From the sequence record OM982647: a stretch of 64,000 bases of DNA; one strand, written 5' to 3'. The stretch's first letter is position 1, and each line of letters opens with the position of its first letter. A program made the position numbers and the translations under genes. The notes beneath the pieces are model-generated. The model was not told where the DNA came from and made no database searches. It saw nothing but the letters and a program-made list of their open reading frames with translations. The DNA is from Escherichia phage ST2. This document shows positions 38,082 through 52,100 of the stretch, piece after piece.

Positions 38082-38255
38082 TTAGTTTCTCTTTTAGGTT
38101 GGGGCCATTCCGTGGCACATGTTAGGTCCTTCGACTCGCTATGTAAACCCATTACCGCACTTGGGCTCGACCTTATTACAGGTTGGAAAAGGTACATCAC
38201 TCAGAGGACTCGACGTTCATAAGGAGAGGTTGCGTTTCCCTTTATTAGGCAAGAA

Positions 38256-38585
38256 TTATACTCTAGGCTTTTGAGCTTGTTTGGTATTGGATTCCCATGC
38301 GGCTTTGGTAATTTTGTTAGCGGCATAACCAAAGGCATTAGATAGAACACCTTTAGAGTTGAATACATCCAATCCAATAAGTACACCGGCTGTGTTAAAT
38401 TTAGGAGCAAAGTACGCATTAGTTTTAGAAAGAGCTTTTTTCAATTCAGGGTCTTGAACCAAGCTATCAAAAACGCCTTTACTATTTACTTTATATGTTA
38501 CTTTGGGATTTTTACCTTCTTCGATAGCAGCTTTCTGTTCCGCAGATAATGTAACTTCAGTGATAAACTCTTGATATGTTTTCAT
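38256..38585 (-). CDS. internal (capsid-packaged) protein candidate with CTS leader
   Basis: N-terminus MKTYQEFITE (capsid targeting sequence ending in Glu). Confidence 0.65.
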   Translation of the reverse strand: MKTYQEFITEVTLSAEQKAAIEEGKNPKVTYKVNSKGVFDSLVQDPELKKALSKTNAYFAPKFNTAGVLIGLDVFNSKGVLSNAFGYAANKITKAAWESNTKQAQKPRV

Positions 38586-38610
38586 TTTGTTCCTATTGTT
38601 TTAATTTATG

Positions 38611-38925
38611 TTATTCTTTAGGGAAGTTTTTAGAGTATGCATCATAAAGTTTATTACCAATACGGCGGAAGACTTTAGCTGCAAAACGGTTTTCAGGGTT
38701 TTTAATCATGATTTGCATCATGTAAGTTCCTGCATCCGAAAGAGCTTCTTCGTAGTACCCATTAATTTCTTTAAGAGTCCTACGTTTACCACCAGGACCA
38801 TCAACAGTAATTTTCCATTTACCTGTAGAAGTGCGGCTCGGTGGCTCAACTTGTTCAATCCAAATATAACCACCTTCAACGCGTTGGTTGGCGGATTCTG
38901 CAATAAATTCTTTATACGTTTTCAT
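38611..38925 (-). CDS. internal protein candidate with CTS leader
   Basis: N-terminus MKTYKEFIAE. Confidence 0.65.
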   Translation of the reverse strand: MKTYKEFIAESANQRVEGGYIWIEQVEPPSRTSTGKWKITVDGPGGKRRTLKEINGYYEEALSDAGTYMMQIMIKNPENRFAAKVFRRIGNKLYDAYSKNFPKE

Positions 38926-38939
38926 TTTTTGTTTCCTTG

Positions 38940-38987
38940 TTTGTTTTGATAGAGTAATTATACCATATTAATACTTAAGCGTAAACA
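38940..38987 (-). promoter_or_regulatory. early promoter GTTTAC-N18-TATAAT
   Basis: Minus strand GTTTACGCTTAAGTATTAATATGGTATAAT. Confidence 0.5.
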
Positions 38988-38989
38988 AT

Positions 38990-39250
38990 TTAAGCTTTAC
39001 CGCCAGAAATAATTCCGAAGTTGTTAAAATCGTATCCAATATCGTCAACATCTACTTTAGGACTTACTACAACATAAGCAATTTCACTACGTTTTGCATA
39101 GGTGTTGATTTCTTTACCATCGCCACCTAAGAAAGAATACCCATTACGTTTTAATGAGCCAAAGTCTTCCGCATCACCAATGAAAGCTTTAACTTTAAAT
39201 TTAGGACCTTTGGCGTCTGCTTCAATGATAAATTCTTGATACATTTTCAT
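38990..39250 (-). CDS. internal protein candidate with CTS leader
   Basis: N-terminus MKMYQEFIIE. Confidence 0.6.
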   Translation of the reverse strand: MKMYQEFIIEADAKGPKFKVKAFIGDAEDFGSLKRNGYSFLGGDGKEINTYAKRSEIAYVVVSPKVDVDDIGYDFNNFGIISGGKA

Positions 39251-39256
39251 TTTTCC

Positions 39257-39670
39257 TTAGTAAATTGATTTACCATAGTATTTGTACCAAGTCGGACGTT
39301 GAGCAATTTTTTCATCTAAGCGTGCTTGACTTATCGCAATGGACGCTTCGGACGGGACATAATTATTACGAAATTCGGCAGGGATGTCAGAAATATCCTG
39401 GACAGTCGTGTCCTTGATTTTGAAACCACGTTTCAAGCATTCGGCGATTAGCTCGATTTGACGTAAACGTAAAAATTCGAGTTTGTCATAAAAGAACGTT
39501 ACGTGACCTGTGCCTAAGATAAATGTTGGAGAGATTTTAAAATCCTTTACACGTTTACCGTTTTGAACATGTTTACGGACTGCACCAAATACGCGTGGTA
39601 ATTCACGATACTCAGCCATAAGATGTTGGTCGGTCAGTTCAGAAACAAGTGTTAAATTGATACGGGTCAT
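39257..39670 (-). CDS. denV: pyrimidine dimer DNA glycosylase (endonuclease V) DenV
   Basis: T4 DenV-like from [12 protein letters not shown] (ATG 39668-39670). Confidence 0.9.
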
Positions 39671-39682
39671 AATTTCCTCCAA

Positions 39683-39727
39683 GTAGTTGATGAATGTATA
39701 GTATCAAAGTCCTTGGAGGAAGTAAAC
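39683..39727 (-). promoter_or_regulatory. early promoter GTTTAC-N18-TACTAT
   Basis: Minus strand GTTTACTTCCTCCAAGGACTTTGATACTAT. Confidence 0.45.
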
Positions 39728-39728
39728 A

Positions 39729-40010
39729 CTATTTTTCTGAAGCGCCTGAAATATATTTTTCAAGACGTTGTTTCATCAGCGAGCCGTTCTTAGCGATTTC
39801 TTCCGGTTTATCGCACATACGCAACAAGGCTTCAAGCTTAACGATATCACTGGTACGTTCAAATTTGCGAGTATCTATCTTACTGGCAAGTTCAGAAATA
39901 CGTGCTAATAGACTTTCGGCTTCAACCAAAGCTGCACCTAGCTTAGTTGCAAACGTGTCAGTAGCTTCATTAAGAATAGATTCTGATAAAAATTCACTAT
40001 ATGTTTTCAT
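39729..40010 (-). CDS. internal protein candidate with CTS leader
   Basis: ATG 40008-40010 overlaps lysozyme stop; N-terminus [10 protein letters not shown]. Confidence 0.6.
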
Positions 40011-40495
40011 ATATACGCTTTCCAAGTTCCTGTTTTAAATGTTGAGATTACGCGTTTCGCGCGATTAGGTGTCTGGCGATACCATTTAGATTTGGCTAGA
40101 TTTACTGCCGCTTCATCCCAACGTTTCTGTTGAAGCATACGAAGAGAATTAGTAAAACCAGCGACGCCTGCTACACCCATTTGGAAGACCATATTGACCA
40201 ATGCACATCGACGAACCGCGTCTAAAGAATCATACACCGGTTTAAGTTTAGCATTACCCAAGATTCCGCGAACGGCTTTATCAACGTCTTCATTAAATAG
40301 CTTTTCGGCCTCATCAAGGGTAATTGTACCGTTGCATTTACGTCCGACCATTCTGTCAAGTTCAGCTTTAGCTACGGCTAAAGAAGGGTTCTTTGTTACT
40401 AAATGGCCTATGCCAATCGTCCAAAAGCCTTCAGTGTCTTTGTATAAAGTCAGCCTAAGACCTTCGTCATTACGAAGCATTTCAAATATATTCAT
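40007..40495 (-). CDS. e: lysozyme (endolysin) e
   Basis: T4 lysozyme-like from [15 protein letters not shown] (ATG 40493-40495). Confidence 0.95.
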
Positions 40496-40529
40496 AATAC
40501 CTCCCACGTTTATAGGAGGTATTTATTAC

Positions 40530-40988
40530 TTATAGGAGGGTAGTGAGCACCTTATATAATGATTTGCCCATTACATATTCCCATTGAGAAGGTTTAATTA
40601 AAGCGAATGCATCAAATTCAGGAATCTGTCGTCCGTCTGGGAATGTATGATAGGAATTACAAACACTGTTTCTGAATTGCTCGTGCTCTACAGGGATGGT
40701 ATATTGGAACAGATGAATATTCTTACTGTCTGAGTAATGATGTTCACCTAGGTCTTTCAGGAAGGCAGGGTCATATTGTGTAAACCCAGTTTCTTCTTCG
40801 CATTCACGAATAGCGGCTTCAATAGGAGATTCGCCAGGTTCGACACGGCCTTTAGGAATATCCCACCGATGAGCTAATGCACCTTTAGGACGAGAACCAG
40901 TTACACGGCCCATGAATAACTCTTTATCTTTTGTCATGAAGATAATACCGGCTGATAGTTCTTTCACTTTATTTTTCTTACTCATCAT
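40530..40988 (-). CDS. nudE: Nudix hydrolase NudE
   Basis: 152 aa; Nudix box GRVEPGESPIEAAIRECEEETG. Confidence 0.85.
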   Translation of the reverse strand: MMSKKNKVKELSAGIIFMTKDKELFMGRVTGSRPKGALAHRWDIPKGRVEPGESPIEAAIRECEEETGFTQYDPAFLKDLGEHHYSDSKNIHLFQYTIPVEHEQFRNSVCNSYHTFPDGRQIPEFDAFALIKPSQWEYVMGKSLYKVLTTLL

Positions 40989-47369: not shown

Positions 47370-47702
47370 TTATTTTTTCCAACTTAACAACTTGTAGTGT
47401 CCTTCACTCGTACGAGGTTTATCCCAAGAAATACTAATATATGATTCGCTGTCAATAGAAGTCGCCGGGTTTTTCTCTACCGTAAGACCTTCACTTTCCA
47501 GCCATTCAATAGTATTTGCGCATAAATCAGAAGAACACCTAATCGGAAACCGGCAAGATTTTTCACCTTTAGCTGCAGTGTTATACATCTTTTCTAAAAT
47601 ACGCTTTTGCACGTTTTTAAAAATAGTTTCAGCAGATTCTTCAGATTTTTTATTCAGTTCAGTATAAAGACTCATAACATTCTTCTCATTAATAGGGCTC
47701 AT
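47370..47702 (-). CDS. hypothetical protein
   Basis: 110 aa. Confidence 0.5.
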   Translation of the reverse strand: MSPINEKNVMSLYTELNKKSEESAETIFKNVQKRILEKMYNTAAKGEKSCRFPIRCSSDLCANTIEWLESEGLTVEKNPATSIDSESYISISWDKPRTSEGHYKLLSWKK

Positions 47703-47732
47703 AATATCTTAATCATGAGCCCATGTACACAT

Positions 47733-48008
47733 TTATTTCATATTATTGAAATAATCTTCCGCATCAAAATCGTTATCATGGTAAACTTTGGTAGACGATT
47801 TGGCGTAGCCTTCGGCCGAGAACATATTAATCACAACTTTAATTGTATACCACTGTCCGTCTTCATTACCCATTACTGCGTAAGTTTCAAACATCGGATG
47901 GTCAGGTCCAATAACTTTAATATCATTCACCGTACGTCCGAAATCTTCTGGAACACATTTCATAAAGAAGTTGAACAGTTCACCGTAATTATCCATTTCA
48001 TTCTCCAA
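47733..48008 (-). CDS. hypothetical protein
   Basis: 91 aa. Confidence 0.5.
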   Translation of the reverse strand: MENEMDNYGELFNFFMKCVPEDFGRTVNDIKVIGPDHPMFETYAVMGNEDGQWYTIKVVINMFSAEGYAKSSTKVYHDNDFDAEDYFNNMK

Positions 48009-48029
48009 GTTTTTTCTGTATCGGTAGTT

Positions 48030-48075
48030 GATAGTTGTATAGTACCACGGAAGAACAGGGATGTAAACAGTTTTG
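48030..48075 (-). promoter_or_regulatory. early promoter GTTTAC-N18-TACTAT
   Basis: Minus strand GTTTACATCCCTGTTCTTCCGTGGTACTAT. Confidence 0.45.
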
Positions 48076-48136
48076 TGAAAAAATTTTTAAAAAGTTCTGG
48101 GGAATTCTAGGGCAGGGAGAGGAAAGGCCTAGATAC

Positions 48137-48163
48137 CAAAAAGCCCTATCATTTAGATAGGGC
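48137..48163 (-). terminator. rho-independent terminator
   Basis: Minus strand GCCCTATCTAAATGATAGGGC plus T5, after stop of 48171-48734. Confidence 0.65.
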
Positions 48164-48170
48164 TTTAAAA

Positions 48171-48734
48171 TTATTTACCTAGTTTAGTTATTATAGCTTC
48201 GGCAGCAGCTTTTAGCTTAGATGCAGTGTTAATACGATTTTTAATTTCAGTATACGCATCGCCAAGAACATCAAGGCTATCAGAATAAACACTTACACTA
48301 TTGCGTTCGCTATTTGAAATAGAACCTTTAGTTTTACGATCAAAATCAGTGTACACGTCTTGAAGATCACGGGCTGCCTTCTTTGCATCATCCAATGCAT
48401 CAAGAGCTTTATTCAAAGCATTGACATATTTTTTAGTGTCAAACATATTCTTAGAAATTTTAACAGGTGCACGTTCAGGAGTAGCTAAGGCGGATTTAGG
48501 AACCTGCGTGCCAGATGCCAGTTTCTTAGAAATTTTGAAAAACGCTTTATTGAAACTATTTTCTTGACTCATCGTAAAAGAACTAGTATCGATGTTATAC
48601 ATTTCAATAGCTTTAGCTTTCCACTTAAGAAAATCGCCACGGTCTTTTGGATCCAAGTGGAAGAATACTTTAGTAAGATCTGCTTCAGATGGTAATTTTG
48701 CTGCTTCGGTTAAAAATTCGGCATAGGTTTTCAT
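48171..48734 (-). CDS. internal protein candidate with CTS leader (187 aa)
   Basis: N-terminus MKTYAEFLTE. Confidence 0.65.
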   Translation of the reverse strand: MKTYAEFLTEAAKLPSEADLTKVFFHLDPKDRGDFLKWKAKAIEMYNIDTSSFTMSQENSFNKAFFKISKKLASGTQVPKSALATPERAPVKISKNMFDTKKYVNALNKALDALDDAKKAARDLQDVYTDFDRKTKGSISNSERNSVSVYSDSLDVLGDAYTEIKNRINTASKLKAAAEAIITKLGK

Positions 48735-48824
48735 TTAAAATCCTTGAAATAATTTATCGGTTTGTTATTAATTATTTATTACTTTGGTATTATCAGTAAC
48801 AGCATTCTCCGAGTGAGTCAAACT

Positions 48825-48851
48825 AAAAAGCCCCAACCTTTCGGAAGGGGC
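48825..48851 (-). terminator. rho-independent terminator (copy 2 of 3)
   Basis: Same GCCCCTTCCGAAAGGTTGGGGC hairpin plus T-run. Confidence 0.7.
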
Positions 48852-48857
48852 ATTCTA

Positions 48858-49322
48858 TTATTTAATTTGTTTAGCAGACCAGATACGGTCTTTAATAAGT
48901 TTTTGGATATCTTCAACATACTCAAGGCTATGAGCGTGAGGATTATCTTTGAAGCTATGTGCTCGTGCCAGTTTCTGGCCTTCTGTTTTGATTACTAAAA
49001 GCTCTTTAAGAATTGCTTCATACTTAGAAATAATTCCTTTGGCGATATTTTTTTCTTGAGCGGCTTTAGGGTCCGCTTTTGGCACAGGTGCTTTACCTGT
49101 AGCTTTCTGGAACAATTCACCTGATGCAGCTAGGCTTTTAAAAACTCGGCTAACAGTATTAGCATTAGTAAAACCTTCGGCTTTAAAATCTCTAATAAAA
49201 CGGAAACGTTCTTCATCAGAGGCGTCTTTGTAAGAATATTTACCTGCTTGAATTGCTGCAATCGCAGCGGCTTTTACATCTGAACTAGATTGTTCAGTCA
49301 AAAATTCAGCGTATGATTTCAT
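48858..49322 (-). CDS. internal protein candidate with CTS leader (154 aa)
   Basis: N-terminus MKSYAEFLTE. Confidence 0.65.
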   Translation of the reverse strand: MKSYAEFLTEQSSSDVKAAAIAAIQAGKYSYKDASDEERFRFIRDFKAEGFTNANTVSRVFKSLAASGELFQKATGKAPVPKADPKAAQEKNIAKGIISKYEAILKELLVIKTEGQKLARAHSFKDNPHAHSLEYVEDIQKLIKDRIWSAKQIK

Positions 49323-49367
49323 GTTGCTTTTCCTAAGTTAATTAACTTATCTATTTATTATTATGCC

Positions 49368-49397
49368 AAAAAAAAGCCCCAACCTTTCGGAAGGGGC
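49368..49397 (-). terminator. rho-independent terminator (copy 3 of 3), ends tRNA/small-RNA transcript
   Basis: Hairpin plus T8 on minus strand. Confidence 0.7.
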
Positions 49398-49700
49398 TAT
49401 GCCTTGCGGCAACCTTGTCGGGGTTCCACCTGCTAAGGCAAGTGTTTGTACGAAACGCCGGGATTCGAACCCGGTTATTAAGTAGTTGACGCTACTCAAT
49501 ATTTTTAAAAGGCCATATCTCGACCATATCCGAACGTTCCGTCAAAAACGCTACTCGGCTTACGGCAAAGATATTTCCTCGAATCGATAATTCGGTGCGC
49601 CGTTTCTGCTGTGATGTAAGGGGATATTAACAAATCGTAAAGATTTATTAAGACCAGTCCTTACGCAGGGAACATCAGTCCGACGACTTACCGGTAGCGA
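49398..49700 (-). ncRNA. candidate small stable RNA(s) downstream of tRNA cluster (T4 rnaC/rnaD-like position)
   Basis: About 300 nt non-coding; tRNA-like T-arm CCGGGTTCGAATCCCGG on minus strand near 49458-49474; ends at terminator. Confidence 0.35.
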
Positions 49701-49709
49701 CCCGGCTTC

Positions 49710-50054
49710 TTATTTTGACATATCATCAATTTGCTCTCGACGCCGACGCCATAGATTAATCACTTCATTAACACATTCGGCGTTTGGTATATGACGGCAA
49801 TAATATAATGATTCGCGTTTCTGGAACCGATGTTGCAATGGGATTTCGTTTAAAAGGTCTTTACGGTCAAAGTATTCAAAACTAGTTAACCCAGAACGAT
49901 TTTTAATGAACTTCCAATGTCCAAATTCATTTTGAACATAGATGTAATCGGCATGCTGATACAACGAATTAATCAATCGGTCTGAAATAACTGTATCATG
50001 TTCGTTAAAATAAAACGTTAAATCATGAACTACTAAGTAAACATTACCTTTCAT
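49710..50054 (-). CDS. hypothetical protein
   Basis: 114 aa between tRNA cluster and small-RNA region. Confidence 0.5.
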   Translation of the reverse strand: MKGNVYLVVHDLTFYFNEHDTVISDRLINSLYQHADYIYVQNEFGHWKFIKNRSGLTSFEYFDRKDLLNEIPLQHRFQKRESLYYCRHIPNAECVNEVINLWRRRREQIDDMSK

Positions 50055-50073
50055 ATTTTCCTCACTTATTAAA

Positions 50074-50149
50074 TGGTCGAGACAGTAGGGATCGAACCTA
50101 CGACCTAGGACTTAGAAGGTCCTTGCTCTTCCTTCTGAGCTATGCCTCG
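50074..50149 (-). tRNA. tRNA-Arg (anticodon UCU)
   Basis: Manual cloverleaf: acceptor CGAGGCA/TGTCTCG, D-arm GCTC..GAGC, anticodon loop CTTCTAA, T-arm GTAGGTTCGATCCCTAC, encoded CCA. Confidence 0.8.
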
Positions 50150-50153
50150 TATT

Positions 50154-50228
50154 TGGCGGACGTGCATGGATTCGAACCATGGGCCAATTGATTAACAGTC
50201 AACTGCTCTACCACTGAGCTACACATCC
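50154..50228 (-). tRNA. tRNA-Asn (anticodon GUU)
   Basis: Acceptor GGATGTG/CACGTCC, anticodon loop CTGTTAA, T-arm CCATGGTTCGAATCCATG, encoded CCA. Confidence 0.8.
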
Positions 50229-50232
50229 AAAT

Positions 50233-50307
50233 TGGTGGCCCTGGCTGGTTTCGATCCAGCTACCTATCAGTTATGAGCTGACAGCTCTCCCATTGAGCTA
50301 CAGGGCC
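50233..50307 (-). tRNA. tRNA with CAU anticodon (Met or Ile)
   Basis: Acceptor GGCCCTG/CAGGGCC, anticodon loop CTCATAA, T-arm GCTGGATCGAAACCAGC, encoded CCA. Confidence 0.75.
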
Positions 50308-50386
50308 TAAATAACTTTCTATTACCAAAGGCACTTTAGAGTGCCTTTGGTAATAGAGGGTATGAATTAATAATAACACATAATTC

Positions 50387-50902
50387 TTAAAGCAAATCAA
50401 TCATTTTAACAGTTGGCAAAACGATTTCTTCTTCAATATAAGCAAATTCAACACATTCAACTACACGCAAGAAATCATAATCATAATATTCAGAAGCATG
50501 GCCAAGAATACCAGTGAGACCTTCTGATACTAAATATCCGTTCTCACAGAAAAGGTCGAATACACGCGATTCGTCTTCTTCAGATTTATTACCAAGGTCG
50601 ACTTCAATATCAAAGACCTTTTTAATGAATTCTGGATAAAGCTGGTCTGAGAACAGTCCTTCAACCAAGTATTCATAGATTAAAAGCGAGCAATCACTGA
50701 ATAGTGTATTACCACAGTAACGTTCAGCTTTAGTGCTAGAATGACGACTCTTAAATTTCTTCAAAAGATATTTAAACTGTTGGAGCTCATGCTCTTCCAC
50801 TTCAAACAATGTTTTGGTTTTATAGTTGTCACCATCATTTTCGTAGGTAGTGACGTCAATTACGTAGCCCTTAGGAATTGTACTGCCTAAACAAATATTC
50901 AT
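50387..50902 (-). CDS. hypothetical protein
   Basis: 171 aa acidic ORF. Confidence 0.5.
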   Translation of the reverse strand: MNICLGSTIPKGYVIDVTTYENDGDNYKTKTLFEVEEHELQQFKYLLKKFKSRHSSTKAERYCGNTLFSDCSLLIYEYLVEGLFSDQLYPEFIKKVFDIEVDLGNKSEEDESRVFDLFCENGYLVSEGLTGILGHASEYYDYDFLRVVECVEFAYIEEEIVLPTVKMIDLL

Positions 50903-51812: not shown

Positions 51813-52100
51813 TTACAGAAGAGTTTTTGCAATAATTTTAAGCTGAGCTACAGAAATATGCTTAGCTTTAAACAGTGCGGTCTCTTCAGCCGGAGAGATA
51901 ACAATAGTAGCGCCGTCTTTCTTAGCAGACCATCCGTCCCCTAAGTAAACAGTACCTTTTACTTCTTCACCGTCAACCAGACTAATCATTGGTTTACCCT
52001 CACGTCCTTTATTTGTTTTAATAACTTCAGAAGTAAGGGATGCTTCGGTCAGAGTAGAAATGTTAGCAACAGGTGATATAAATTCTTTATAGGTTTTCAT
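51813..52100 (-). CDS. internal protein candidate at the IPI locus with CTS-like leader
   Basis: N-terminus MKTYKEFISP...; adjacent to 57B as T4 ipI. Confidence 0.6.
   Translation of the reverse strand: MKTYKEFISPVANISTLTEASLTSEVIKTNKGREGKPMISLVDGEEVKGTVYLGDGWSAKKDGATIVISPAEETALFKAKHISVAQLKIIAKTLL

Follow-up and report, generated by a model that had tools for sequence, protein, structure and literature searches.

Two genes with capsid-targeting leaders between rnaC and e.8 in a Mosigvirus genome are candidates for injected internal proteins

What do two adjacent small genes, placed between the small-RNA gene rnaC and e.8 and starting with the capsid-targeting leader (CTS) of internal head proteins, contribute to a T-even phage? 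The question arises from a 64,000-nucleotide stretch of Escherichia phage ST2 DNA (OM982647), referred to here as the window, which is a segment of a Mosigvirus (RB69-like T-even) genome. A first-pass annotation of the window had described ORFs of 187 and 154 aa, starting MKTYAEFLTE and MKSYAEFLTE, as internal-protein candidates. Both ORFs are present on the minus strand with these lengths and N-termini (Table 1), and their products are identical to PhAPEC2_133 and PhAPEC2_134 of Escherichia phage vB_EcoM_PhAPEC2, each annotated 'hypothetical protein'. Over positions 47700-50400, the window is 99.7% identical to this phage.

Leaders and predicted mature products

[quoted passage not shown] Y4, F7, L8 and E10 are intact in the leaders of both ORFs (compare MKTYQEFIAE in IPIII), and L8-T9-E10 is, as a sequence motif, a candidate gp21 site in each. 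The residue following the predicted cut, residue 11, is Ala in the 187-aa protein, as in the classical Glu-Ala bond, and Gln, not Ala, in the 154-aa protein.

Removal of the 10 leader residues would leave mature products of 177 aa (19.6 kDa, pI 9.5) and 144 aa (16.0 kDa, pI 9.6). The first-pass annotation considered the two proteins larger than the T4 internal proteins, which is incorrect since the IPIII precursor has 193 aa. The mature form IPIII* (183 aa, 20.4 kDa, pI 9.65) is almost a twin of the predicted mature 187-aa protein in size and pI, and the pI of T4 IPII* and IPIII* (9.6) is near that of both predicted products.

The strict motif MK[ST]YxEF[IL]xE was seen five times in six-frame translation, compared to an expected 1e-5 and to none in 200 shuffles, which excludes chance as the origin of the leader motif. 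The window contains seven leader-bearing ORFs, as previously counted: four around denV, the two studied here and the IPI homolog.

The window is a mosaic, in which the locus studied here is PhAPEC2-like (99.7%) and the ipII/ipIII locus (38200-40600) resembles Mosigviruses of the GADS24/JK36 type (98.6%). The latter locus is without the IPIII gene that PhAPEC2 has, and four small leader-bearing ORFs flank denV instead; the order is e, 93-aa ORF, denV, 86-aa, 104-aa and 109-aa ORFs. Two of the leader-bearing ORFs, 38256-38585 and 38611-38925, are adjacent paralogs (34% identity over 73 aa), and both match phrog_3966 ('unknown function'), whose members carry a head-targeting leader.

Table 1. Positions of the two cassettes and of related features in the window
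Feature	Position	Strand	Details
Leader-bearing ORFs around denV	38256, 38611, 38990 (MKMYQEFIIE), 39729; span 38256-40010		four ORFs
Terminator after 187-aa ORF	48138-48164	both	hairpin and T-run; -19.4 kcal/mol, z -3.7
Two-cassette insertion relative to T4	48143-49370	minus	1,228 bp; both ends terminator T-runs
187-aa precursor ORF	48171-48734	minus	start MKTYAEFLTE
Leader of 187-aa ORF, MKTYAEFLTE	48705-48734	minus	
Late-promoter motif AATAAATA	48773-48780	minus	38 nt upstream of 187-aa ORF ATG
Terminator after 154-aa ORF	48825-48851	minus	second copy of 27-nt repeat; -17.5 kcal/mol, z -3.9
154-aa precursor ORF	48858-49322	minus	start MKSYAEFLTE
Leader of 154-aa ORF, MKSYAEFLTE	49293-49322	minus	
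Late-promoter motif AATAAATA	49352-49359	minus	29 nt upstream of 154-aa ORF ATG
rnaC terminator, upstream boundary	49371-49397	minus	GNRA-loop hairpin and T-run; -22.2 kcal/mol
rnaC	49587-49449	minus	99.3% identity to T4 rnaC
rnaC and rnaD homologs	49449-49713		rnaD 49713-49594, 86.8% identity to T4
IPI homolog, leader-bearing	51813-52100		Pfam IPI_T4, 2.6e-49

Late cassettes at a polymorphic site

Each gene forms an insulated cassette consisting of a terminator, a (T/A)ATAAATA late promoter, a Shine-Dalgarno sequence, the ORF and a further terminator, a layout that is conserved across genera. The strong terminators reported after each ORF were recovered, the folding energy of each (Table 1) lying beyond all 200 shuffles. 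The rnaC terminator, which bounds the pair upstream, is an exact 27-nt direct repeat (100%) of the one that closes the 154-aa cassette. The hairpin that closes the 187-aa cassette differs from this repeat: it has a perfect 11-bp stem, reads as a terminator in either direction and is followed by GGTATCTAGGCC..., leading on to the e.8 early promoter.

The motif AATAAATA precedes both genes, with a Shine-Dalgarno sequence between the motif and each ORF, and its sole difference from the T4 late-promoter consensus TATAAATA is at position -13, which is A or T in most T4-like phages studied (PMC1524935). It occurs five times on the minus strand of the 64 kb, two of these occurrences being in the short spacers considered here. 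Either TATAAATA or AATAAATA stands at the equivalent position in all homologous cassettes of 10 IMG/VR loci, RB32 and a Karamvirus, and a Marfavirus cassette has CATAAATA there. The late motif lies just after a terminator hairpin in every homologous cassette examined, and that of the 187-aa cassette is conserved in loci L010, L012 and L013. No sigma-70-like promoter site was found in either spacer. Since the late motif is conserved and sigma-70-like sites are absent from the spacers, we infer that the two genes are probably expressed essentially only late, as proheads are built. Such timing would depart from the T4 model, as T4 ipI, ipII and ipIII, together with the IPI gene of the window, have early-type promoters (GTTTAC...TAxxxT) directly upstream. 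A MotA-box interpretation of AATGCTGTTA, which lies upstream of the 187-aa ORF, was dropped because its spacing to any -10 element is wrong.

Comparison with T4 places both cassettes in a single insertion. The rnaC terminator of T4 is followed immediately by GGTATCTAAGCC, and the window thus carries an insertion of 1,228 bp (49370-48143) between the T-run of this terminator and GGTATCTA, which directly follows the terminator in T4. The T4 e.8-rnaC spacer aligns to window positions 49448-49371 (92%) and resumes at 48142/48122-47997. The small-RNA gene at the border is 99.3% identical to T4 rnaC across genera; no family in Rfam 15 detects rnaC or rnaD.

The occupants of the rnaC-e.8 site vary. 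The site is empty, with no ORF, in T4 and in Yersinia phage PST, the latter annotated with Ip names by the Krisch laboratory. RB32 (whose annotation notes a flanking 34-bp repeat) and many Mosigviruses carry the 153/154/157-aa type alone. The 154/157-aa and 187-aa types occur together in the window and in several other loci and phages, with only 19 records carrying both genes in near-identical form. Loci L004 and L006 combine the 157-aa type with a 184-aa membrane ORF (phrog_2143), and loci L005 and L007 combine the membrane ORF with a 205-aa type. The site is thus polymorphic, and its absence of ORFs in T4 and PST and its other occupants elsewhere indicate that the cassettes are accessory and dispensable.

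The 184-aa predicted membrane protein (L004:3326-3880, L005:2636-3190, L006, L007) is without a head-targeting leader. Since its gene in L005 and L007 lies behind the same terminator and TATAAATA module, the late cassette also serves proteins other than leader-bearing ones. In RB69 (AY303349, 73431-73990) the 187-aa gene is split into RB69ORF148c/149c, which could reflect a frameshift pseudogene or a sequencing error.

The 5' module, comprising terminator, late promoter, untranslated leader and first codons, is near-verbatim in cassettes whose ORF bodies differ; for example, the 157-aa and 205-aa types have identical upstream sequence and the identical start MKTYNEFLNES. Divergence was compared between the window and Tequatrovirus-type loci. 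Nucleotide identity is 95.5% for the 187-aa gene (dS 0.17), 87% for e.8 (dS 0.59) and 75% for the 154-aa gene (dS 0.8-1.8), a sharp contrast showing that the 187-aa cassette recently moved between lineages. Of the 164 phage records with the 187-aa protein, 163 have it at >95% identity, which is atypical of an arms-race protein; the low dS of its gene relative to that of neighbouring e.8 speaks for recent spread and not for constraint.

Two Ip loci have been described (Silas et al. 2025, PMC12373910). The rnaC-e.8 site lies outside both of these loci, and its sequence organization makes it a third site, on the downstream side of the tRNA/small-RNA cluster, with cassettes of predicted late expression. 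Other features were observed within this cluster. A 114-aa ORF (RB69ORF150c type) at 49710-50054 sits between rnaD and tRNA-Arg, an interval that is empty in T4; in related loci it is only 72% identical or unalignable, making this another variable slot. The tRNA-Met call at 50233-50307 (anticodon CAT) may be a tRNA-Ile read after anticodon modification, and the RB32 record notes the same for T4 tRNA-Ile with its CAU anticodon. The terminator scan also gave a perfect 18-bp hairpin with a weak T-run on the minus strand at 50318-50357, just upstream of the tRNA cluster, overlapping the end of a 171-aa ORF region.

A divergent family of two-domain proteins

Both proteins match phrog_2280 of PHROGs v4 from end to end (187-aa protein, 1.6e-53, residues 1-181; 154-aa protein, 2.2e-53, residues 1-154), as does the 205-aa type, the alternative occupant of the rnaC-e.8 site (5.8e-60). 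The label of phrog_2280 is 'unknown function', and none of the family members examined has a functional name in public records, all being 'hypothetical'. The family is small: when 1.84 billion representative proteins were searched exhaustively with its profile, only 22 clusters were recovered.

BLASTP between the 187-aa and 154-aa proteins aligns the leader alone, and their hhalign score falls from 45% to 1.5% (not significant) when the leader is trimmed. The 205-aa type is closer to each, with scores of 95.7% (86% after trimming) against the 187-aa protein and 96.1% (44% after trimming) against the 154-aa protein. Two intermediates connect the three types. P0041 can be aligned over its full length with both the 205-aa type (1e-26) and the 187-aa protein (9e-13); for P0044, the alignment covers the full length with the 154-aa protein (9e-25) and the C-terminal half with the 205-aa type (1e-17). 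Although the direct comparison without leaders is not significant, these intermediates indicate that the 187-aa and 154-aa proteins are homologous, their genes being, on sequence grounds, divergent tandem paralogs of one small family.

The family plan consists of the leader, one of two N-domain types, a Pro/Lys/Ala linker and usually a helical hairpin. The 154-aa protein has an N-domain of type A (aa 11-67), a linker (aa 68-84) and a helical hairpin (aa 85-151); the 187-aa protein has an N-domain of type B (aa 11-73), a linker (aa 74-95) and a long helical hairpin (aa 101-186). The Pro/Lys/Ala richness of the linker is strong in the 205-aa subfamily. Some family members retain one N-domain type and have unrelated C-termini.

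Many relatives have a longer leader with two successive cleavage-type motifs, MKTYNEFLNE-SVLTE-A or MLNFKEFIAESDSDMITE-A (L004, L008, L009, L010, P0033-P0053), and one variant, MKTYAQFLMTE-A, breaks the L-x-E spacing. The genes in the window have the short, 10-residue form.

The bodies of the two proteins had been described as having no recognisable domain, and this holds for Pfam, NCBIfam and PADLOC (no match above cut-off for either ORF), for PDB sequences (keratin coiled-coil noise only with the family profile, E > 0.3) and for Foldseek against the PDB. Structure prediction, proposed in the first-pass annotation as a check, gave all-helical AlphaFold2 models with disordered leader and linker (pLDDT 75 for the 187-aa and 76 for the 154-aa protein) that matched no known fold: with both models, Foldseek found no PDB structure below E = 0.2, only generic helical bundles, and only the family itself among viral models. 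Neither ORF matches Pfam PF11634 (IPI_T4), the sole match in the window being the gene at 51813-52100. BLASTP against T4 IPI, IPII and IPIII aligns the leader only, with no similarity in the mature part, and homology to the other leader-bearing ORFs of the window is likewise confined to the leader.

Possible roles and comparison with known systems

By their sequences, both proteins belong to the known class of leader-bearing internal proteins of T-even phages, as new and so far uncharacterised members. The proposal that they are CTS-bearing internal-protein candidates agrees with the leader residues, the L-x-E ending at residue 10 and the basic mature products, and also with the late promoters, the polymorphic, dispensable locus and the purifying selection. 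The precedent for their function comes from T4 Ip1, Ip2 and Ip3, which have the leader alone in common and inhibit three different GmrSD enzymes, one each (Silas et al. 2025, PMC12373910), and from Bas37_0260, a non-homologous CTS protein at the ipI locus that blocks McrBC (bioRxiv 10.1101/2025.11.20.689424). All five CTS internal proteins for which we found an identified target in the literature inhibit type IV/modification-dependent restriction enzymes, and since they are all highly specific inhibitors, the leader would be a cheap and reliable flag for injected counter-defence.

We therefore hypothesize, by analogy and with a probability of roughly 55%, that the two proteins are synthesised late and packaged, that they are cut after Glu10 and injected, and that they block host defence nucleases. 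From leaders that are intact, cassettes of the late type, dispensable genes that are present in some phages and absent from others, and the Ip precedent, we infer packaging, cleavage, ejection and an anti-defence target. Two tandem genes of an accessory family, each insulated by terminators and having its own gp55-type late promoter, would supply the precursors during prohead assembly. The 10-residue CTS would bind the scaffolding core and carry the precursors into the prohead, where gp21 would cut after Glu10 (L-T-E). The basic mature proteins, of ~19.6 and 16.0 kDa, would remain among the packaged DNA and be ejected with it into the next host, and each would most likely bind and block one specific host defence nuclease. 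Candidate targets are GmrSD-like or McrBC-like restriction enzymes (type IV), which attack sugar-modified hydroxymethylcytosine DNA. The literature yielded neither virion proteomics nor genetics for any family member, and nothing usable in virion proteomes of carriers (PhAPEC2, fHe-Yen9-01, JS98, Mosigvirus).

A broader and more tentative reading, which we consider possible, is that the rnaC-e.8 site is an unrecognised third hotspot for injected anti-defence proteins, filled by a modular family in which either of two N-domain types is joined by a flexible linker to a helical hairpin or to some other C-domain. Late-only expression would mean that its members act only as pre-loaded cargo. Cassette exchange, mediated by terminator and leader, and domain shuffling would generate new specificities, and the tandem 154-aa and 187-aa proteins might each neutralise a different host system, not necessarily of type IV.

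The main rival is a physical job inside the head, either neutralisation of DNA charge or core/head assembly as for IPIII, with the lysines and the Pro/Lys/Ala linker binding condensed DNA. We regard it as unlikely overall, although the basic, IPIII*-like mature forms and the linkers, strongly Pro/Lys/Ala-rich in the 205-aa subfamily, fit it, and the lysine-rich composition would suit a DNA-associated head component equally well. In T4, lysines of the internal proteins are in contact with phosphates of the DNA (PMC3012670), head assembly in IPIII mutants runs at half the normal rate with a burst ~40% of normal (PMC9026906), and the phage of the window has no IPII or IPIII homolog. However, T4 and PST are without the cassettes altogether, an accessory, host-specific role accounts better for the variable presence and the swapping of cassettes, and IPIII itself is now shown to inhibit a GmrSD (PMC12373910). 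PhAPEC2, phiE142, phiC120, Shfl2 and EcNP1 have the 187-aa gene alongside IPIII, which also rules out the 187-aa protein as an IPIII substitute.

The proteins could alternatively be late cytoplasmic and unpackaged, the leader-like N-terminus being kept only as the recombination-site part of the 5' module. The near-verbatim 5' module between different ORF bodies would fit, and T4-type phages are documented to recombine between promoter/stem-loop motifs that are conserved (PMC2839356). However, in the most divergent phrog_2280 relatives the leader drifts (MLKFKDILTE, MITFNEFLNESEMINE, MNFKEFLKEEALNE) yet still has (L/I/V)-x-E at its end, with A, S or G as the next residue, which argues for selection on the peptide and not on the DNA alone, and 10 leader residues package GFP or beta-galactosidase in T4 (PMC9026906). 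We therefore think it improbable that the leader is a mere recombination scar.

That the ORFs are spurious, lying within a non-coding spacer beside small-RNA genes, is favoured by nothing beyond the annotation 'hypothetical protein' and is refuted by the conservation pattern. Full-length copies occur in 164 phage records for the 187-aa protein and in 511 for the 154-aa type; pairwise dN/dS values of 0.09 (187-aa gene) and 0.08-0.19 (154-aa gene) indicate purifying selection on both; each has a promoter, Shine-Dalgarno sequence and terminator of its own; and the AF2 models reach pLDDT 75-76.

Some 700 or more of the sequenced T4-type phages, including many candidates for phage therapy, carry the family, which is annotated as hypothetical only. 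If its members are injected inhibitors, they would add new phage/defence pairs and may help to explain host-range differences among near-identical therapeutic phages that differ only at the rnaC-e.8 site; the late-promoter/terminator cassette would then offer a natural means of loading cargo into T4-type heads. The two proteins are concrete, easily tested candidates for injected counter-defence and introduce no new principle.

The closest known systems are T4 IPI-III, which have a near-identical CTS leader with an L/I-x-E site and, as here, are small, basic and dispensable proteins from polymorphic hotspots with the leader alone in common. The sequence and fold of their mature parts are unlike those of the 187-aa and 154-aa proteins, which have two domains joined by a flexible linker and are predicted head proteins. 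The T4 genes lie at the ipI and ipII/ipIII loci and have early-type promoters, whereas the genes studied here lie at the third site and have a late promoter and flanking terminators. Bas37_0260 is, similarly, a non-homologous protein recognised only by its leader; it differs in locus (ipI) and is unrelated in sequence, and its function was shown by knockout, whereas that of the present proteins is proposed by analogy. The existing phrog_2280 entry does not record the head-targeting leader, the late-cassette layout or the locus. The cassettes also resemble PeSL elements, in which an early promoter is combined with a stem-loop and which take part in modular shuffling in T4-type phages (PMC2839356, PMC4122927). 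In both, an accessory ORF is bracketed by promoter and terminator motifs, indels occur exactly there, and terminators provide transcriptional insulation. The PeSL promoter is of the sigma-70-like early type, whereas the cassettes at the rnaC-e.8 site have repeated stem-loops and, just after the stem-loop, a gp55-type late motif instead.
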